Part shown: positions 22,723 through 31,582 of the stretch, one piece after another
Numbering within the stretch: the stretch's first letter is position 1
Layout: each line of letters begins with the position of its first letter
Sequence record: OV876900
Length of the DNA: 64,000 bases
Direction: 5' to 3' (one strand)
Origin: Escherichia phage UGKSEcP2
Made by a program: the position numbers and the translations under genes
Notes under the pieces: model-generated
Database searches by the model: none
What the model was told of the DNA's origin: nothing
What the model saw: the letters and a program-made list of their open reading frames with translations, nothing else

Positions 22723-22752
22723 ATTATAACACAGCACGAGGGACTTGTAAAC
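22723..22752 (-). promoter_or_regulatory. early promoter GTTTAC-N18-TATAAT (ORF 22401..22691)
   Basis: -35 and -10 hexamers on minus strand, conserved leader with GAGGAA RBS. Confidence 0.65.
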
Positions 22753-24809
22753 TACATCTTGAACTTTTTAGACATTCCGTTGATGTTAACCAAAGAAGCC
22801 AAGATTTGAGAAACTTCGTTTTCCTCTTCTTTTGATTCTTCTACAAGGAATTGATTAAACCCAGCCATTGGACGAACTTCACCAGTTTCCATTAGATGAT
22901 CGCCATCATATACCGATTCTTCTAATTGTTCAGAAGGAGGAACGATTGTGCCTTCGATTAGATACTTGTTATAAGCAGTTTCTTTCATCATGTACGTGCT
23001 TACTTTATTAATCTTCAGCAAAATTCCACGCGGTAGAATAACTTCAGCTTCTGATGGAAATCCTGATAAATGACCTGGAACGATAACTTTGATTCGCTCA
23101 GCCCCTTTAATTACCATACCTACGCTAGTTTCAGCATCTTCATTCGCATAAGCAGAATGACTGCCCATATGCATTAAATCTTCAGCATCAACAGAACCTT
23201 CTCCTTCACCAGAAAATACTGCGCCGGAATCATCTAGAGCCATATAGTTTTTACCATGCTCACCGAAGATATTTGGTTTAAGCGATGTTGATACGAAGTT
23301 CTTGAAATAGAACATTTTATTTTCAATATTATGGCGTAAAGTTTTAAAAGTAACTTCTTGACCACGATAAAGCGTAGTTCCCGGAGGAAGAACTGATCCT
23401 TTGGCGAATGCAGAATCCATTGTCTCGATGTGTTTAATAGCTCGTTCCATGTATTCTTCACGGGTAGAATCCGGTTTACCTAAAAGGAACGAGTTCATTT
23501 CAACATATGAATCTGCACAATAATCTTCAATTACATCAGACTCAGCCTGAGTTAATCCTTTTGGAGTTACTTCGGTGCTTGCGTATTCATATGCCTGAGC
23601 AGCAGATTCATTAATCAATTTATAAATGCTATTCATGACAAATTGAATAATAGCTACTTTTTCGTCTGGCGTGGCTTTAGAACCTTTAACTAAATCATTG
23701 ATAATTTTCTTAATAACATCAAAGCTATTAGAAATATTAATGTCAGCGAGATCGCTCAAAATTTTATCGGTTTTATAATCAAAGAATTCTTTATTCTTTA
23801 AATATTCTTGAGAACCTTGATATGTTATATCGCTCTGCAGTCTGATAGACGGATCACGTAAACGTGCATGGGCCAATGCAATATGATTTCGGAAGCTTTC
23901 TAGTTCATAATCGTTAGATTTAAAACGAGAAGCACTTCTCATACCACCGATAGCTCCTTTGCTGAAGTTTGAACCAATCTGAATAACGCCAGAGTTCATT
24001 GGTCCTTCTGCTTTATATACTGGAACTTTAGATTCAAACTCTTGATATTTCTTAGCAGCGAAGCTATCGCCCTGGAGTGAAGCATCGACAGTAGAATATT
24101 GAGCTTGTGCTGCTAATCGACGACTAATTTTAGTTTTCTGAATAACAGCTTGATCCGTGCGCTTATCATTTTCTAAAGCAATAGAAGCAGCAACAGCAAC
24201 AGCTTTAGGAACAGCATTACCTGTTTTAACATCTACATAAACATCACCAACCTTTGATTCAACTTTTGTGAATAACTCAGTTGAAATAGGAGGTACACCT
24301 GGAATGTCTTCTAAATTGGCATTTTTACGGTAAACCATAATATATGCATACTTTTTATCATAATCCCAGATTTCCTTTAAAAGAACATATCGACCTGCTC
24401 CTTTAGTACGTACTAAACGGTCAGCAATAACTTGCATCTGACGAGCAGCGCCATTTGTTTTACTTTTTAGTACGCGGAATAGGCATGCGTCAATTTTATA
24501 CTGTTTCATTGTTTGAAGAGCAGTATCAAAAACCGCATTAATGACACCAATTGGATTTCCACCCAAGTTTTTAAGTTTAACTAATGATAGTTTCTCATTA
24601 ACACCTATCATTACGATATGCATCATTTTATCGCCTGGCTTAACGTTTTTATTTGTATCACCGCCAGAGGTGTATGTACAAAATCTAAATCCAGGAAGCA
24701 CGCTTTCTTCACCGGCTTGAATAGCAAAAATTTGAGGTATTTTATGCTTAGGATTTAAGTTAACAACCGGCGCCGAAGCGCCGTCAAATAATTCTGTAAT
24801 AAGTTCCAT
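22752..24809 (-). CDS. Alt-like ADP-ribosyltransferase paralogue
   Basis: 685-aa ORF; N-terminus MELITELFD as in Alt; C-terminal R-S-E motif triad (YRGQ, STS, EAEVILPRG). Confidence 0.8.
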   Translation of the reverse strand: MELITELFDGASAPVVNLNPKHKIPQIFAIQAGEESVLPGFRFCTYTSGGDTNKNVKPGDKMMHIVMIGVNEKLSLVKLKNLGGNPIGVINAVFDTALQTMKQYKIDACLFRVLKSKTNGAARQMQVIADRLVRTKGAGRYVLLKEIWDYDKKYAYIMVYRKNANLEDIPGVPPISTELFTKVESKVGDVYVDVKTGNAVPKAVAVAASIALENDKRTDQAVIQKTKISRRLAAQAQYSTVDASLQGDSFAAKKYQEFESKVPVYKAEGPMNSGVIQIGSNFSKGAIGGMRSASRFKSNDYELESFRNHIALAHARLRDPSIRLQSDITYQGSQEYLKNKEFFDYKTDKILSDLADINISNSFDVIKKIINDLVKGSKATPDEKVAIIQFVMNSIYKLINESAAQAYEYASTEVTPKGLTQAESDVIEDYCADSYVEMNSFLLGKPDSTREEYMERAIKHIETMDSAFAKGSVLPPGTTLYRGQEVTFKTLRHNIENKMFYFKNFVSTSLKPNIFGEHGKNYMALDDSGAVFSGEGEGSVDAEDLMHMGSHSAYANEDAETSVGMVIKGAERIKVIVPGHLSGFPSEAEVILPRGILLKINKVSTYMMKETAYNKYLIEGTIVPPSEQLEESVYDGDHLMETGEVRPMAGFNQFLVEESKEEENEVSQILASLVNINGMSKKFKM

Positions 24810-24812
24810 GAT

Positions 24813-26906
24813 TTATCCTTGAACGAACTTGTAAGGCATGTTTGCAATATCTATGCAAGATGCAATAATTCCAAGAGATGATTCTACTTTTTGTTTAACA
24901 TTTGATGAAACAAATGATGCAAAGTCAACTCTGTCTTCTATTTCAATATCATCTGTCATTGCAACTACTTCACCAGTTTCCATTAGACGGTCACCGTCAT
25001 AAATTACCGATTCGGTGAGTTCTTCCGTAGTCATAACTTCAGCTTGAATGAGTTTTGTATTATTAGATGTTGTTCCGTCATTATTAGAAGCATCAGTTAT
25101 TTTATTAACTTTGACCATCAATCCGCGTGGTAGAATAACTTCAGCTTCTGTTGCTATTCCGAGACTTCCTGGATATACAACATTAACTTTATGAGCTCCA
25201 TCAATTGCCCATCCTATTTGAACTTTAACGTATTCAGGATTTTCTTTATACGCTCTTATTTCATTTGGATTAATAGTTATTCCTTCTTCATTTTTATCAA
25301 CTGTTAATTCATTACGAGCTTCTGGTTCTAAAAGACCAATACCAGCATGCGTAATTCCAAAACGTCCAAAAATGATAGGAGTTAAAGAAGTAGATACAAA
25401 ATTTCTGAAATAGAACACTTTATTTTTAACTAGTGCTTCGTATATAGGAGCAGTCATGCTTTGAGCACGATAAACTGTAATGCCTTCTGGTATACGGTCA
25501 CCATTTTCAAAGGCTGAATCTAAATTATTTATCGCAGATTCAATTTCTTTTTCACTCATTACCTCATATCGTTCTGGATTGTAGCGACCTAAAAGAAGAT
25601 TATTGATGTCAGTATATCCTGAACCACAATACTCTCTAATGCCGCGCTTTTGTGATGGAGTATATTTAGAACCATCACGAGCAATAGTAATATCAATCAT
25701 TGGACCTGCACCAATTCCAGAAAAACTATAAATCATTCTTTTGAGGAATTTAGTTTTTGCTGCATTCCAGGAATTTTTAGTTATTTCTTCCCAGACTTCA
25801 TCTGTCTGTCCTTTACGAGTTTTATTATGTTTATCAAGCCAGTTATCTTTATATTCTTCAAATAATTGATTAACAACTGTTGCGTATTTCTCTAAACATT
25901 TTATTGAAGTAGTTGGTTCATTTTTAATCGCATTAAGAATTACATCTTTAATTTTTTCAGAAACTTCATTAACCTCACTTTTTGAAAAGAATTTATAGTC
26001 ATAATGAAGTTCATCTGCAGTTCCTTCAGCAATAATTTTTGCTGCCTTAGTTTTAGAAGCTAATGAATTAATTCCAAGCTTCATTTCTTCTGCTTCGGGA
26101 ATTAAAGGAGCTGTAGCAGGTTTATTGAAATTAGCTGCGGTAGATTCATACTTCTGGAATAATTCACTTTCAAATCTAGAAGATTCCAATGATTGACTTT
26201 GTGCAATTGCTCTACGGGAAATTTTAACTTTAACGATTACAGCTTGGTCAGAACGTTTATCATTTTCTTGTGCAATAGATGCTGCAATTGCCTCATTTTT
26301 AGTTACTTGAGCTCCAGTATCTTTATTGATATAAACATCACCGACTTTCGATTCAACTTTAGTAAAGAGCTCGGTACTAATTTCTGGAACTCCTGGAATG
26401 TCTTCTAATGATACATTTTTGCGATGTATAAGAATATATGCGTACTTTTTATCGTAATCCCAGAGTTCCTTAAGAAGGACGTATCTGCCACCTGAACGAC
26501 TGCGGATAAGTCTATCAGCAATAAGTTGAATTTGTCGAGCTTGACCAGCAGTTTTAGACTTAAGAATACGGAGCATACAGGCATCAATTTTATACTGACG
26601 CATCGTTTGCATTGCAACTGTAAAAACTGAATTGATATAATTAATTGGGCTTGGACCGAGACCTTTTAATTTAGCAATTGAACCTTTAGCAGTTAATGTA
26701 AAAGGAACAATATGCATCATTTTATCGCCCATCTTTAAATCGCGATTAGTATCACCTCCAGATGTATAGGTACATAAACGAAAGCCTGGTTGTTCAATTG
26801 CGTCATCAACATGAACTGAAAAAATTTGCGGTATTTTCTTCTTTGGATTTAAGTTTGTAATCGGAAGAGTAGTATCTTCGTCAAATAATTCTGTAATGAG
26901 TTCCAT
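24813..26906 (-). CDS. alt: Alt ADP-ribosyltransferase (virion-packaged)
   Basis: 697 aa from second ATG (track ORF has MM start); MELITELFDEDTTLPITNL N-terminus; R-S-E motifs; late promoter upstream. Confidence 0.85.
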   Translation of the reverse strand: MELITELFDEDTTLPITNLNPKKKIPQIFSVHVDDAIEQPGFRLCTYTSGGDTNRDLKMGDKMMHIVPFTLTAKGSIAKLKGLGPSPINYINSVFTVAMQTMRQYKIDACMLRILKSKTAGQARQIQLIADRLIRSRSGGRYVLLKELWDYDKKYAYILIHRKNVSLEDIPGVPEISTELFTKVESKVGDVYINKDTGAQVTKNEAIAASIAQENDKRSDQAVIVKVKISRRAIAQSQSLESSRFESELFQKYESTAANFNKPATAPLIPEAEEMKLGINSLASKTKAAKIIAEGTADELHYDYKFFSKSEVNEVSEKIKDVILNAIKNEPTTSIKCLEKYATVVNQLFEEYKDNWLDKHNKTRKGQTDEVWEEITKNSWNAAKTKFLKRMIYSFSGIGAGPMIDITIARDGSKYTPSQKRGIREYCGSGYTDINNLLLGRYNPERYEVMSEKEIESAINNLDSAFENGDRIPEGITVYRAQSMTAPIYEALVKNKVFYFRNFVSTSLTPIIFGRFGITHAGIGLLEPEARNELTVDKNEEGITINPNEIRAYKENPEYVKVQIGWAIDGAHKVNVVYPGSLGIATEAEVILPRGLMVKVNKITDASNNDGTTSNNTKLIQAEVMTTEELTESVIYDGDRLMETGEVVAMTDDIEIEDRVDFASFVSSNVKQKVESSLGIIASCIDIANMPYKFVQG

Positions 26907-26929
26907 CATATCCTCTCTAGTGTTTATTC

Positions 26930-26958: not shown

Positions 26959-27147
26959 TTAATAATCTATTGGTAAGAGAGTACGATATATTTCAAACTT
27001 TGGACCTTTTTCATAGGCATCAAATGTTTCTGTGAATTTATTATAAGCATATGCATCTATAAATTCAATCATAATTTGTGATACAGAAGTAGAAACATCT
27101 CCACCTTCTTTTTGAGCCACGACAATTGTTTCTAAGTAAGCTTTCAT
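26959..27147 (-). CDS. hypothetical protein
   Basis: 62-aa ORF, start overlaps ligase stop. Confidence 0.5.
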   Translation of the reverse strand: MKAYLETIVVAQKEGGDVSTSVSQIMIEFIDAYAYNKFTETFDAYEKGPKFEIYRTLLPIDY

Positions 27148-28604
27148 AGACCAGTTACCTCATGAAAATCACCAAATACATCCTCGAATGTATTAGCTTT
27201 AGTTTTATCTTCACGTAAACGAATCGCAATCGGAAGAAATAATTTAACGTAATCAGTGCGGCCATCAGATTTTAACCAACCGTTGCATTCGCACTCTAGA
27301 ATTTTTCCAATATAATAATTTTGGTTTTCCATAATGCGAGTACGGTCAAGTTCATGCGATTTTACACCGGCTTTATCTTTTAAGCCTGAACCAGCATTTA
27401 CTTTAATTTTTCCACACTCTGATTCAAGAATAAATCCACCTGCTTTAGTAGGGTCTTTACGGTGAGGATAAATTCCTACAATTTTTAAATCAACATCAAT
27501 TACTTCTTTAAATTTATAAAGATTTTTTGAACGAGCATTTTCCCACAATCCATCGGTATTTTTGAGAATAATACCTTCAAGACCTTGGTCAATATACTTT
27601 TTATAAATTACCTTAGCTTCATCTAGGTTATTTACTACCTGGTTTTCAATTAAAATTACTTTATCATATCCTGATGTCATTTGTTCTAGTTTAGAAAAAC
27701 GTACATCATATTTTAAACGAAACGCCGGAAGACCGTATATTTCTACCAACGGGACATAATCCCAGACCTGAAACTTCATGCATTGAGCTTCTTTTTCTGA
27801 AATAGTTCCCTTTAAAGATTTATTGGCGATTCCATTAGAAGCAGTACGCGATTCAGCTACTTCGGAAAACTCTTTAGCTTTACTGATTTCAGGAGCATCA
27901 AAAAGAAAATCTAGGCCTTCTGGCTCCTTTTCAACCTGCTCATGGTATACCAATTCGCCATCAATTAACACGCCTTCTGGATGAATCTGGCGAGCTTCAG
28001 CAGTCATTTTGATTAACTCTTCCTTAAGAAGATCTAATCCTAGATATTCATTACCAGCTCGTGATAAAAGACGAACATCATCTAATTCATCACCTCGGAC
28101 TTCAGCAAAACACCGAGCTCCATCTGCTTTTAACTGTGCAAAAGCTGGAAATTTGATATTCTTACTAATGCCTTTTTCATCATAAGAACTTGCCAGCATT
28201 TGAGGCTGTTCAGGAATTAAACCTGGCCAAACTTTATTTGCGATAGATACTGAAGCACCGCATTCAAGATCTCGCATCATAACTCGACGCAAAACTTCAA
28301 CATCATCCTTTTTACCATCAGTGATATATCCAGTTAATTCCTCAATTGCAGCATTTCCAGTCAATTTCCGAGTAGCTAACGTGAATTCAATGAAGTCAAG
28401 CATATCGGTAATAGTCAGCATTCCAAAACTCTGGGTAGCAATACCAGGTTTAGGCCATTTCTTGATATAATACTGTAACCCACGAGAATAAGTCAGACGA
28501 TATACTCGTTTAAGCAATTCATTATCTTTATTCTTTTCAAGAATTGCTTGCTTCTGCTTAGTTGATCCAATAGATGCTATTTCATTCAGAATTTTAAGAA
28601 TCAT
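27144..28604 (-). CDS. 30: ATP-dependent DNA ligase gp30
   Basis: 486-aa ORF; recognised as T4 DNA ligase. Confidence 0.93.
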   Translation of the reverse strand: MILKILNEIASIGSTKQKQAILEKNKDNELLKRVYRLTYSRGLQYYIKKWPKPGIATQSFGMLTITDMLDFIEFTLATRKLTGNAAIEELTGYITDGKKDDVEVLRRVMMRDLECGASVSIANKVWPGLIPEQPQMLASSYDEKGISKNIKFPAFAQLKADGARCFAEVRGDELDDVRLLSRAGNEYLGLDLLKEELIKMTAEARQIHPEGVLIDGELVYHEQVEKEPEGLDFLFDAPEISKAKEFSEVAESRTASNGIANKSLKGTISEKEAQCMKFQVWDYVPLVEIYGLPAFRLKYDVRFSKLEQMTSGYDKVILIENQVVNNLDEAKVIYKKYIDQGLEGIILKNTDGLWENARSKNLYKFKEVIDVDLKIVGIYPHRKDPTKAGGFILESECGKIKVNAGSGLKDKAGVKSHELDRTRIMENQNYYIGKILECECNGWLKSDGRTDYVKLFLPIAIRLREDKTKANTFEDVFGDFHEVTGL

Positions 28605-28870
28605 TGCTCATCCTTCAAGGTTTGGTTTACAGCTCTATTATAAATCAATTCATCATTAAGCTCAGGCAAAGACCTATGATATGTAGTTCTAACTTTATTT
28701 CCTTGCATCCAGTGCTTAACGTAAATGAAACCTTGCTCTACACATTTTTTAAAAATTCGTTCGTCTTTTTGAGCTCGGAATTCTGGATTACATCTAAAAA
28801 ATTGATTTACGTGACCGTAATCACGTGTAGTATTACCTTCATTTTCATAAATAGTGTGAACGACAAACAT
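28601..28870 (-). CDS. hypothetical protein
   Basis: 89-aa ORF, overlapping start/stop with neighbours. Confidence 0.6.
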   Translation of the reverse strand: MFVVHTIYENEGNTTRDYGHVNQFFRCNPEFRAQKDERIFKKCVEQGFIYVKHWMQGNKVRTTYHRSLPELNDELIYNRAVNQTLKDEQ

Positions 28871-29709
28871 TAGAATGCTCCTTGGAAAATATTATCACCG
28901 CTAGTAGGTCTATTATACAAATACTCTATGCCACCAGGTTTAATATAGTTCCATGTCTGAAATGGATGTGTCTGATATGGATGATATAGATGATTATAAG
29001 GATTAAATCCAGGCGTTCTCCAGGTAGTGTTCCAAGTAAAAGAATCGTTTTTAACCATCTTCTCAATTAAATCTTTTATAGCTTTTTCACTATCAAAACT
29101 TTCTTTATTTTCCTTCGGCGAAAAAAGCTTATTTTCTACATCATTCCATGTATAAACTCGCTGGGCAGTTTTTGGAATATTGTCACGCTCTCCTCGAGCC
29201 ATCCAATAAACTGGAACATTTAATATTTCACTCGCATGATCGCAGTGGTGAGCGAGATCGTCAATATAACAAATTACGTTATATTTCTCTTTTGCCTTTT
29301 TGAACAGCTCTTCTTTTGAAGAATCATGACCACACATCATTACTTCTGAGAAGGCACCAGGAAAAAGAGCATTCAAATTAAATTGACGATTCAGCAGAGC
29401 GTCAATAGAATCACCCAATGCTGTAACAGCTACAAAATTATAATCTTCTTTTAATTTATTAATTACACACAGGGCATCTTTATATGGAGACAAGTAACGA
29501 ATAAAATCTGATCGATTATATTTTTCAATTAGCTTGACACCGAGTTCTTCATCACAATTAAAGAGTTTACCTGGAGAAATAAATTTCTCATCTTGGATCA
29601 TTTTTAAAATATGTTCTAACGGAAGATTATATTTCTGAGCAAAATAAGGAAGACCTGATTGCCAGCTTAAACATACTCCATCAATATCAGTTAAAATAGT
29701 AGGCTTCAT
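28870..29709 (-). CDS. HAD-superfamily hydrolase-like protein
   Basis: 279-aa ORF; N-terminal ILTDIDGV resembles HAD motif I. Confidence 0.65.
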   Translation of the reverse strand: MKPTILTDIDGVCLSWQSGLPYFAQKYNLPLEHILKMIQDEKFISPGKLFNCDEELGVKLIEKYNRSDFIRYLSPYKDALCVINKLKEDYNFVAVTALGDSIDALLNRQFNLNALFPGAFSEVMMCGHDSSKEELFKKAKEKYNVICYIDDLAHHCDHASEILNVPVYWMARGERDNIPKTAQRVYTWNDVENKLFSPKENKESFDSEKAIKDLIEKMVKNDSFTWNTTWRTPGFNPYNHLYHPYQTHPFQTWNYIKPGGIEYLYNRPTSGDNIFQGAF

Positions 29710-30164
29710 AGAGAGTCTCTTAATAGGTTTAACACATCAATAAATTCAGCTTCGGTTAGTATTGTATCATCTTTTGTTAGACCACTAGCCATGCTGTGCT
29801 TCAAAACTTTTCCTTTCGAGGCTTGTAATGCATCACGAAAGCCCCTGTTTTGGAACGCTGCTTCAAAATATGCATTTGTGTATAATTCTTTCCACGCTGG
29901 AGAGTATCTTGAAAACGGAACTCCAAGCCAGAAGAGGGTCCCACGGTCCTGAGCTCTAGCATAAGCTCGTCCAGCTTGTTGGGCGGCAAGCCCGGATAAC
30001 CCAAATATACGATGTTGCTGTTCAACATTTTTCACCTTGCATCCTTGGAGGAATCCTTCGAGACCTCCAAATTGGATACCATCCATAACAAAAGGCCATT
30101 GGGCGAAATTACTTAATGCACATGATGGCCATCTAAAATTGCTTCTAATCTCTAACTCAGACAT
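29706..30164 (-). CDS. NADAR-like (YbiA-family) protein
   Basis: 152 aa from ATG (track ORF begins at TTG); LSNF...F..DG..F...E....K pattern reminiscent of NADAR domain. Confidence 0.6.
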   Translation of the reverse strand: MSELEIRSNFRWPSCALSNFAQWPFVMDGIQFGGLEGFLQGCKVKNVEQQHRIFGLSGLAAQQAGRAYARAQDRGTLFWLGVPFSRYSPAWKELYTNAYFEAAFQNRGFRDALQASKGKVLKHSMASGLTKDDTILTEAEFIDVLNLLRDSL

Positions 30165-30372
30165 TTTCAATACTTATAATTTCAACATCAGCCCAATGAC
30201 CGTAACTTGGTAAACGGTCTTCAATAGATAATCCGCCATCATATTTAAGCATTTTAATTGTCATAATATATGGCTCTAAATGGTCTTCAGTGAGCGGAGA
30301 GACATCAGTCACACGATAAGTAACTTCGACCATTTCCGTGCCCAGTAATTTCTTGATTAATTTCTTAAACAT
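30157..30372 (-). CDS. hypothetical protein
   Basis: 71-aa ORF. Confidence 0.5.
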   Translation of the reverse strand: MFKKLIKKLLGTEMVEVTYRVTDVSPLTEDHLEPYIMTIKMLKYDGGLSIEDRLPSYGHWADVEIISIENV

Positions 30373-30376
30373 TTTA

Positions 30377-30664
30377 TTAGAACCTCATCTGAAAACCGTG
30401 CGATTTAACACTACCGCCGCCAATATCAGAAATATTAATTTCACGCGCAATTGAAGGGTCAATGTCAATTTCACGATTGAGTTTAGTGATAGCTAAAGTA
30501 TCGCGGCCATTTACAGTACGGAACTCTAAAGGGCAGACTACATTAACATAGTTTTTAATCGATTCACTGGTAGGTTGCAAATGAGCAGGAAGGTCTTTAG
30601 GCGCCTTAGAGAAAACCACTTCACAGAAATTTTTGCGGGTGTCAAAATAAGTAGTCATAAACAT
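30377..30664 (-). CDS. hypothetical protein
   Basis: 95-aa ORF. Confidence 0.5.
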   Translation of the reverse strand: MFMTTYFDTRKNFCEVVFSKAPKDLPAHLQPTSESIKNYVNVVCPLEFRTVNGRDTLAITKLNREIDIDPSIAREINISDIGGGSVKSHGFQMRF

Positions 30665-31139: not shown

Positions 31140-31472
31140 TTATTTTACTACTTTCCAGTGCTGCATGTCAAGTTTACCAACTTTTTTCATCTTCTCAATT
31201 AAGCGTTCGGCGCGTTGGCGAGCTGTAACATAATACCATTCACCCAATTCATTTTGTTCAATTTTTCCAACGATTACTGTATTCAATTCATAAATCCAAC
31301 CAGTAAAGAAATTATGAACTTGAATTGTAAAGGTGAAATCTGTTCCCATACCTTCTGTTGTTTCTACTTCAATAATATCACCTTCAACTGCCATTAAGAA
31401 CCACATAGTTTCATCATATTTACCGTTGAAGCATTTAGTTTTAACTGCAGCGTTCAGATTAATTGTTTTCAT
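31140..31472 (-). CDS. hypothetical protein
   Basis: 110-aa ORF with own early-type promoter. Confidence 0.55.
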   Translation of the reverse strand: MKTINLNAAVKTKCFNGKYDETMWFLMAVEGDIIEVETTEGMGTDFTFTIQVHNFFTGWIYELNTVIVGKIEQNELGEWYYVTARQRAERLIEKMKKVGKLDMQHWKVVK

Positions 31473-31529: not shown

Positions 31530-31558
31530 AACTTTGTGCAATCTTTGGAAAATAAAAA

Positions 31559-31578
31559 AGGACTCCCGAAGGAGTCCT
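31559..31578 (-). terminator. terminator after the small basic ORF
   Basis: AGGACTCC-TTCG-GGAGTCCT on minus strand followed by U-run. Confidence 0.65.
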
Positions 31579-31582
31579 CAAC

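Follow-up and report, generated by a model that had tools for sequence, protein, structure and literature searches.

Organization of the locus

The window analysed here is a stretch of 64,000 nucleotides from Escherichia phage UGKSEcP2 (OV876900), a Tequatrovirus (T4-like) phage. The two ORFs of interest, of 152 and 279 aa, correspond to T4 genes 30.3 (adfN) and 30.2, and both occur on the minus strand, a detail absent from a preliminary description of this DNA. The order of the genes is that of T4, namely alt, alt.1, 30, 30.1, 30.2, 30.3 and 30.4 (Table 1). The preliminary description had also placed the ORFs next to ADP-ribosyltransferase genes, and the plural was apt, as a second full-length alt-like ORF is found near alt.

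Table 1. Genes, ORFs and key codons at the adfN–30.2 locus (window positions)
Feature	Position	Strand	Remark
Second alt-like ORF	22752..24809		Full length
alt	24813..26909		2.8 kb from the ORF pair
Gene 30	27144..28604	-	ATP-dependent DNA ligase
Gene 30.1	28601..28870	-	DUF3045, 89 aa; between 30.2 and the ligase gene
Gene 30.2	28870..29709	-	279 aa; predicted HAD-superfamily phosphatase with NT5C-like C1 cap
gp30.2 motif I, D8	29688..29686	-
gp30.2 motif I, D10	29682..29680	-
gp30.2 motif II, T96	29424..29422	-
gp30.2 motif III, K132	29316..29314	-
gp30.2 motif IV, D150-D151	29262..29257	-
adfN (T4 gene 30.3)	29706..30164	-	152 aa; minimal phage-type NADAR
AdfN E36	30059..30057	-	Catalytic
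AdfN K43	30038..30036	-	Catalytic
AdfN H123	29798..29796	-	Catalytic, phage-type
ORF inside adfN	29801..30028	-	75 aa, out of frame; equivalent of annotated T4 gene 30.3'
Gene 30.4	30157..30372	-	71 aa; no assigned function

Several lines of evidence show that these are established phage genes. The 152-aa protein matches the Pfam family Phage_30_3 (E = 1.7e-68) and PHROG 652 (E = 5.7e-51), the 279-aa protein matches PHROG 420 (E = 1.6e-92), and each is 97% identical to its T4 counterpart. Moreover, DNA of the locus is present in 689 GenBank phage records. Judged by sequence, then, both ORFs are genuine genes and not chance ORFs. The adfN and 30.2 reading frames overlap by 4 bp (ATGA), and no terminator-like hairpin was seen on the minus strand from approximately 31.5 kb to the ligase gene. 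A scan for promoter-like sequences returned 22 matches, which is not above the 19.6 expected from shuffled sequence. Gene 30.2, adfN and the ligase gene probably share a transcript.

AdfN as a phage NADAR protein

The preliminary description had likened the 152-aa ORF to NADAR/YbiA-family domains on the basis of a pattern (PSCALSNFAQWPFVMDGIQFGGLEGFLQGCK) that maps to residues 13–43. Single-sequence searches with gp30.3 produced no NADAR match: Pfam returned only Phage_30_3 and not PF08719 (NADAR) even at E ≤ 1, and nothing of the kind was found in NCBIfam, PADLOC (where no DarG model was matched) or a phmmer search of the PDB. In fact, the family relationship emerges one step removed, with 25 of 61 gp30.3 family members matching PF08719 (best E = 1.5e-7) and the family profile matching E. 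coli YbiA (2b3w; E = 0.0076) as its sole sequence-profile match in the PDB. By sequence, membership of gp30.3 in the NADAR family is thus transitive only, and since the direct searches gave no NADAR match, the assignment draws on these transitive links, on structure and on the literature. The profile search that had been proposed as a check was therefore split in its outcome, for direct Pfam searches matched neither NADAR nor HAD with the respective query, and remote-homology methods linked the proteins to both families. Clearly, a direct Pfam search would have been misleading as a refutation, and remote-homology methods are needed.

Structure prediction and fold comparison, also proposed earlier, bore out both assignments, with models that match NADAR and HAD structures, respectively. 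The AF2 model of gp30.3 (pLDDT 93, pTM 0.88) has short strand pairs (3–5, 25–27, 30–32, 76–79, 82–85 and 120–122) around helices. When compared with the PDB by Foldseek, its top three matches were the NADARs YbiA (2b3w), that of G. lovleyi (8bat) and PnNADAR (8bau) at probabilities of 0.98–1.00, and all non-NADAR matches had probabilities of 0.03 or less. YbiA was the best structural match (E = 1.6e-4, TM 0.68), and the two proteins have the SNFA...E..FQ..K motif in common. YbiA nevertheless differs in having a Glu in the last strand and in being a host gene of a LexA-controlled operon; it has been linked to riboflavin-intermediate N-glycosidase activity and swarming.

The catalytic residues complete the picture. 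Roles for E36, K43 and H123 come from work on T4 (PMC11825919, PMC11125620), and loss of such residues had been named as a finding that would speak against the assignment. All three are intact in the copy of this phage, and an alignment of 61 family sequences shows no variation at E36 or H123 and at least 90% conservation at K43. The protein is clearly an orthologue of T4 AdfN (PMC11825919, PMC11125620), with 97% identity over 152 residues, the same genomic position and the same C-terminal helix (residues 138–151). Its five substitutions relative to T4 (H51R, A67S, F104I, R107K and M125I) avoid every known catalytic position, and residues 126 to the end (...LNLLRDSL) are identical to T4, unlike the RB69-type frameshifted allele; the RB69 gene is annotated as 414 nt, or 137 aa. 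Considering the transitive profile links, the fold and the catalytic residues, which all agree, the 152-aa protein is a NADAR, as first suspected.

The function of this gene in T4 has been determined experimentally. Gene 30.3, or adfN, encodes a guanine-specific DNA ADP-ribosylglycohydrolase through which T-even phages escape the DarTG1 system (PMC11825919, PMC11125620, HIDEN-SEQ 2025). Deletion of adfN renders T4 sensitive to DarTG1, while RB69 is rescued by adfN supplied ectopically, and chimera mapping traced resistance to a single segment, the 3′ part of 30.3 (PMC11825919). The purified protein strips ADP-ribose from DarT1-modified DNA without binding DarT1, and its activity is impaired by E36A, K43A and C-terminal truncation (PMC11825919). 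Its specificity is narrow, with cleavage of guanosine-ADPr and not of thymidine- or cytidine-ADPr (PMC11125620). Transposon insertions in 30.3 were strongly depleted under DarTG1 (log2FC -7.25), and the gene was dispensable on K-12, where 27 of 28 sites were hit, being essential only with DarTG1 (HIDEN-SEQ 2025). The earlier idea that a phage NADAR undoes the DNA ADP-ribosylation of a DarT-type toxin is thus correct, having been demonstrated and published in 2024–2025 for the T4 orthologue.

Carried over to the present phage, the mechanism would begin with host DarT1 (of DarTG1) ADP-ribosylating guanine in the phage DNA after infection and blocking its replication. AdfN would then cleave the N-glycosidic bond between guanine and ADP-ribose by means of E36, K43 and the phage-specific H123, thereby freeing ADP-ribose and restoring the DNA. 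The steps of this scheme have been shown by experiment for T4 AdfN, and orthology, at 97% identity, would extend them to the copy described here.

In such a role AdfN acts as an orphan DarG1-like antitoxin that does not bind the toxin. The NADAR antitoxin DarG1 (Geobacter lovleyi 8bat; E. coli C7) has the fold and the removal of guanine-linked ADP-ribose from DNA in common with AdfN, but the two are only about 15% identical. AdfN is a bare core without the extra N-terminal helix and sheets of DarG1, has a His where DarG1 has an Asp in the last strand, and is not encoded beside DarT. Nor can it substitute for DarG1 in uninfected cells. Rescue of DarT toxicity by the 152-aa ORF had been put forward as a check, and the published answer for AdfN-T4 is negative, as it does not relieve the toxicity of DarT1 when cells are uninfected and is of hardly any help to phages T5 or Bas25 (PMC11825919, PMC11125620). 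These results indicate that plain hydrolysis of guanine-ADPr on DNA is an incomplete description of its action.

Considering the two alt-like genes 2.8 kb away, and the ability of NADARs to remove guanine-ADPr from RNA as well, the protein might instead regulate or reverse the phage's own marks, those placed by Alt, ModA or ModB on protein or RNA, rather than counter a host defense. We regard this as highly unlikely. In assays that covered guanosine-, thymidine- and cytidine-ADPr, the T4 NADAR acts on the first and not on the other two, and the DarTG1-restricted requirement for adfN on K-12 points away from an intrinsic role. The functional tie to alt implied by the preliminary description also failed to appear in HIDEN-SEQ, where insertions in alt, modA and modB had no DarTG1 phenotype. 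Furthermore, the ligase neighborhood, a proxy for the ligase/alt region, is kept in just 22 of 80 NADAR-centered loci.

gp30.2 as a probable HAD-superfamily phosphatase

The 279-aa ORF had been described as HAD-like from its ILTDIDGV motif, which occupies residues 5–12, and it can now be seen to have the complete signature. Among 39 sequences D8, D10, G11 and K132 never vary, and conservation reaches at least 90% at T96, D150 and D151, with the motif I Asp pair and the motif III Lys also invariant in 59 distant relatives. R108 and N111 are conserved residues specific to the family. The model (pLDDT above 90 over residues 1–190) places these residues as would be expected of the fold, with strands 4–7, 91–96 and 145–150 ending at D8, T96 and D150, and strand 120–125 ending just before K132. 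It had 120 matches in the PDB at E ≤ 1e-3, and the 50 listed were all HAD-superfamily proteins. The complete set of four motifs and the fold together make gp30.2 a HAD-superfamily hydrolase. By analogy with the HAD mechanism it would be a Mg2+-dependent phosphatase, with D8 as nucleophile, D10 as acid/base, T96 and K132 binding phosphate and D150-D151 binding the metal.

The nearest relatives of gp30.2 appear to be the cytosolic and mitochondrial NT5C 5'(3')-deoxyribonucleotidases (PF06941; 2jao, 2i7d and 1mh9). The cytosolic enzyme 2jao was the top structural match (2.2e-8), and both groups combine the HAD core with a helical C1 cap, which in gp30.2 comprises about 55 residues (helices 16–72) between motifs I and II. 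Sequence likeness is faint by comparison. The gp30.2 query had no match in Pfam, PF06941 included, or in NCBIfam, and nothing meaningful in a phmmer search of the PDB. PF06941 was matched by 7 of 39 close homologues (best 1.2e-4) and was the commonest Pfam match among the distant relatives (16 of 59, best 4.2e-10), while the family profile matched 2jao weakly (E = 0.017), aligning DGVLvkWqSGL with DGVLADFESGL. A DxDGV motif I, an aromatic residue six positions past the second Asp and a following SGL are thus found in both. That aromatic is W16 in gp30.2, where it is invariant, and its counterpart in cdN is the Phe of DGVLADF, which has a base-stacking role in cdN/mdN structures.

Identity between gp30.2 and NT5C is only about 16%, and R108, N111 and a phage-specific, disordered tail of about 80 residues set gp30.2 apart. 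Core and cap together span residues 1 to approximately 200, and the remainder, about 200 to 279, is the tail, which is low in confidence, variable and rich in W, Y and P. Among longer proteins of the family, Pfam found the HAD domain alone in one (P0247) and zero families in six others (P0301, P0199, P0237, P0214, P0232 and P0179). A full-text literature search for "gp30.2" found no functional study or assay of any member. On balance gp30.2 is probably a nucleotide phosphatase, nearest to NT5C by analogy of fold and motifs, and its most likely substrate, as a guess, would be a (d)NMP or a similar small phosphomonoester.

Of course, another HAD phosphatase of T4, that of Pnk/3'-phosphatase (pseT), invites a different comparison. 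It shares the superfamily and the DxDGT/V motif, and it too is a phage enzyme alongside a ligase, so that gp30.2 could be imagined as a 3'-phosphatase healing nucleic-acid ends for the ligase encoded next to it. Linkage to the ligase gene is indeed striking, with a ligase gene no more than 6 kb from 30.2 in 61 of 61 IMG/VR loci, on the same strand and at most about 750 bp downstream. The two genes also adjoin, in reversed order, in the contig of a divergent homologue of 40% identity, for a total of 62 of 62. Since all of the loci are T4-like, this adjacency may be no more than inherited synteny. Phage Pnk models do occur among the structural neighbors of gp30.2, and a PHROG "polynucleotide kinase" family gives a weak match (E = 0.0021), but NT5C remains the best match by both structure and profile. 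When gp30.2 was aligned by hhalign with this phage's own Pnk, motif I alone aligned, at a probability of 14%, and as a Pnk-like end-healing enzyme gp30.2 was rejected on that result. The cap is a further point against it, as C1 caps in HAD enzymes are typical of those with small-molecule substrates, and the Pnk phosphatase, which acts on nucleic-acid ends, is capless by HAD classification. An end-healing role is therefore unlikely, and a phosphatase of the NT5C type is preferred.

Relations among adfN, 30.2 and 30.4

By setting the two ORFs side by side, the preliminary description implied a functional tie between them, and adfN and 30.2 could in principle form a two-enzyme module in which gp30.2 serves as a T-even helper of AdfN or processes its product. 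The overlapping start and stop, with no terminator-like hairpin seen between, would suit such an arrangement. Tequatrovirus/Mosigvirus-type loci have the genes side by side on one strand, and in several other lineages no more than 1 kb lies between them. Both occur in T2, T4 and RB69, where AdfN is effective, and the two families have similar genus counts across GenBank phages. Association breaks down on a broader view, with some 55 kb separating them in many T4-like genomes, a gp30.3-type NADAR in just 28 of 61 loci centered on 30.2, and a 30.2 homologue in just 23 of 80 NADAR-centered loci. In addition, free ADP-ribose has no phosphomonoester that a HAD phosphatase could attack. Chimera mapping, as noted above, points to 30.3 alone (PMC11825919), and insertions in 30.2 were neutral under DarTG1 (log2FC -0.12, p 0.61, adjusted p 1.0, 71 sites), as against -7.25 for adfN (HIDEN-SEQ). 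Given the DarTG1 data and the non-conserved adjacency, gp30.2 was rejected as a partner of AdfN; the two-enzyme module is largely refuted and has only a very slim chance of being correct. gp30.2 would instead act independently.

On the other side of adfN, the stop codon of gene 30.4 overlaps the adfN start (ATGTCTGA), and no obvious Shine-Dalgarno was found in the sequence upstream of adfN. On these two features of the sequence, 30.4 and adfN are probably translationally coupled. Insertions in 30.4 were depleted under DarTG1 (log2FC -1.79, adjusted p 0.014; HIDEN-SEQ 2025). The gene is confined to T-even-type phages, with 721 GenBank records and RB69 among them, and immediately precedes adfN in all 14 of 14 close loci. 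Its T-even-only distribution and the depletion of insertions both speak for 30.4 as the T-even-specific factor on which full activity of AdfN-T4 depends, which we consider quite improbable all the same. The simpler explanation of the phenotype is lost translational coupling, since adfN has no Shine-Dalgarno of its own. Gene 30.5 of T4 is missing from the locus. Moreover, gp30.4 is only about 53% identical to its T4 counterpart beside an AdfN at 97%, which argues against a specific partnership.

Taken together, it is very likely that AdfN undoes the guanine marks of DarT1 and that gp30.2 is a separate HAD phosphatase, probably for a small phosphomonoester. The locus as a whole is ordinary and already explained, and AdfN depends on a T-even infection for its effect. 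Two minor leads are the mild phenotype of gene 30.4 under DarTG1 and the tight linkage of 30.2 to the ligase gene in T4-like phages. The phage HAD phosphatase family that includes gp30.2 is large, with 1440 cluster representatives, and the AdfN of this phage is another allele of a known and biologically important anti-DarTG1 enzyme.

The adfN locus in the window

The window is part of a T4-like phage genome, in which alt, 30 (ligase), 30.1, 30.2, 30.3, 30.4, 30.6-30.8, rIII, 31 and cd follow the T4 order on the minus strand. The 1.9-kb stretch around adfN (gene 30.3) and 30.2 matches 689 GenBank phage records, with Escherichia phage Killian at 99.3% identity. Both ORFs were found at the coordinates given in the preliminary description, on the minus strand and with both motifs quoted there; they share a 4-bp overlap (ATGA), and their products are each 97% identical to the T4 counterparts. 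The out-of-frame ORF inside adfN, which T4 annotation describes as 'internal translation in a different reading frame', is intact. The alt-like ORFs are both full length and in tandem, whereas reference T4 has a single alt, with degenerate fragments alt.-1 and alt.-2 in place of the second copy.

Features of the adfN region and its surroundings
Feature	Position	Strand	Size	Remark
alt-like ORF	22752..24809	-	685 aa	tandem
alt-like ORF	24813..26909	-	698 aa	tandem
30.2-ligase pair	27144..29709	-		adjacent genes
30.2	28870..29709	-	279 aa	
gp30.2 tail	28870..29110	-		residues ~200-279
adfN (30.3)	29706..30164	-	152 aa	
30.3' equivalent	29801..30028	-	75 aa	inside adfN; annotated in T4
30.4	30157..30372	-	71 aa	overlaps adfN start
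Site of missing gene 30.5	30372..30377			between 30.4 and 30.6 in T4
Best sigma-70-like site on the strand	31171..31142	-		
Terminator-like hairpin	31558..31579	-		upstream of 30.8

No minus-strand terminator-like hairpin occurs between ~31.56 kb and the ligase gene, so genes 30.7 through 30 probably form a single transcription unit, as judged from consensus scans. The strong hairpin upstream of 30.8 (GAGGACTCC-TTCG-GGAGTCCTT, then a T-run) and the sigma-70-like site may together bound a unit running through adfN, 30.2 and ligase; in the consensus scan, promoter-like sites were no more frequent than in shuffled sequence.

A NADAR protein and the action of its T4 orthologue against DarT

In Pfam, gp30.3 falls into a family of its own (Phage_30_3, E 1.7e-68), and direct searches of Pfam for NADAR, and of NCBIfam, PADLOC and the PDB with the single sequence, returned nothing. 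The preliminary description, which had proposed a NADAR-like protein, would have given up the idea on such an outcome, and that test would have rejected a true relationship. PF08719 (NADAR) is matched by 25 members of a diverse family set of 61 (reaching ~35% identity at the low end; best E 1.5e-7), and the family profile matches E. coli YbiA (2b3w, E 0.0076) across the SNFA...EGFLQ..K segment. Moreover, the only high-probability matches of the AlphaFold model (pLDDT 93) in the whole PDB are three NADAR structures, namely YbiA (E 1.6e-4, TM 0.68), G. lovleyi 8bat and Phytophthora 8bau. Family-profile links and predicted fold thus identify the 152-aa protein as a NADAR.

Work with T4 has already established what its gene 30.3 does, and has renamed it adfN, 'anti-DarT factor NADAR' (PMC11825919). 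Chimeras of RB69 with T2 or T4 placed resistance to the DarTG1 defence in the 3' portion of 30.3; a frameshift costs the RB69 allele 15 residues, and ectopic adfN-T4 rescued RB69 on DarTG1 hosts (PMC11825919). The RB69 annotation of 137 aa confirms the shortened allele. E36A, K43A and truncated forms of AdfN were impaired, while the purified protein stripped ADP-ribose from DarT1-modified DNA and showed no binding to DarT1 (PMC11825919). The T4 NADAR hydrolyses guanosine-ADPr and not thymidine-ADPr in vitro, and in phage NADARs the last-strand catalytic position is His (PMC11125620); the T4 enzyme, a bare NADAR core, does not remove cytidine-ADPr (PMC12945103). Independently, the HIDEN-SEQ preprint reported that DarTG1 selects against 30.3 insertions.

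The window copy has E36, K43, H123 and the full C-terminal helix, and its five differences from T4 (H51R, A67S, F104I, R107K, M125I) all fall elsewhere. The earlier suggestion that the protein counters DarT-type toxins is therefore right, though not new; overall, the observation is confirmed and its interpretation supported.

The HAD-like product of 30.2 and its ligase neighbor

Direct Pfam and NCBIfam searches of gp30.2 gave no match. The HAD assignment made from its N-terminal motif is upheld by an alignment of 39 homologues, where all four HAD motifs are recognizable (D8, D10, G11 and K132 invariant; T96 and D150-D151 nearly so), and by the model (residues 1-190 at pLDDT above 90), which places every motif at the end of its canonical strand in the core and builds a C1 cap from helices 16-72. 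Foldseek returned 120 PDB matches at E <= 1e-3, the best 50 of these 120 all belonging to the HAD superfamily, with mouse cytosolic 5'(3')-deoxyribonucleotidase ranked first (2jao, 2.2e-8). The family profile also matches 2jao (E 0.017), aligning DGVLvkWqSGL with DGVLADFESGL. An exhaustive profile search collected 1440 cluster representatives, mostly stand-alone proteins of 190-220 aa; among 59 more distant ones the commonest Pfam match is NT5C (16/59, best 4.2e-10), with generic HAD models fewer. Viral structural neighbors are uncharacterised T4-like proteins, followed by phage proteins annotated "5' nucleotidase". Motifs and model together make gp30.2 a predicted capped HAD phosphatase, whose substrate is most likely a nucleotide-like small molecule. 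No functional study was found, and "gp30.2" is absent from the literature text searched; the protein, although uncharacterised, belongs to a known superfamily and is unremarkable within it. Two family members, P0247 (591 aa) and P0301 (660 aa), carry the HAD fused to a long N-terminal extension with no Pfam match.

The W/Y/P-rich tail of gp30.2, modeled with low confidence, is highly variable. In enterobacterial T4-like phages it carries a short recurring motif, G-IEYL-x-x-(Q/R)-PT. Homologues of 200-220 aa from Acinetobacter, Serratia and other phages lack the tail, which may be a docking peptide.

The ligase gene lies immediately downstream of 30.2 on the same strand in all 61 IMG/VR loci centered on 30.2 (L081-L141), and in L143, a T4-like contig with a 40%-identity homologue, the two are two genes apart in reversed order; in all, a 30.2-type gene stands beside ligase in 62/62 loci examined. 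The adjacency may be inherited synteny, or it may mark a real functional link. One such link would be an end-healing phosphatase working with ligase, an idea made less likely by the cap domain and by the negative outcome of an hhalign comparison with the phage's own Pnk.

Candidate partners of AdfN

AdfN-T4 is fully effective only when the infecting phage is T-even, and a further T-even protein "may" be required (PMC11825919), which made 30.2, as the overlapping neighbor, an obvious candidate. In HIDEN-SEQ, the DarTG1 competition is in Extended Data Table 6, on the sheet after RnlAB, taken as Control_vs_DarTG1 because 30.3 stands there at log2FC -7.25 (adjusted p 0). Insertions in 30.2 were neutral (log2FC -0.12, p 0.61, adjusted p 1.0, 71 sites), as were those in alt, modA, modB and 61.2, and 30.2 is non-essential on K-12 (insertions at 72/72 sites). 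Proximity is also not conserved: of the loci centered on 30.2, only 28/61 include a gp30.3-type NADAR nearby, and of those centered on NADAR only 23/80 include a 30.2 homologue nearby; on contigs in both lists the genes can be ~55 kb apart. Both results oppose 30.2 as the partner.

Gene 30.4 has the traits to be looked for in the missing factor, since its insertions are significantly depleted under DarTG1 in the same published data (log2FC -1.79, adjusted p 0.014), gp30.4 occurs in T-even-type phages alone (721 records), the gene is directly upstream of adfN in 14/14 close loci, and RB69 has it; gp30.4 is accordingly a candidate. The simpler explanation is disrupted translational coupling to adfN, which has no evident Shine-Dalgarno sequence and begins with an ATG that overlaps the stop codon of 30.4 (ATGTCTGA). 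The window gp30.4 is only ~53% identical to that of T4 as against 97% for AdfN, which is unlike a co-evolving partnership. Gene 30.5 is absent from the window, as it is from RB69, and the step in identity between 30.4 and adfN points to a recombination boundary immediately before the adfN start.
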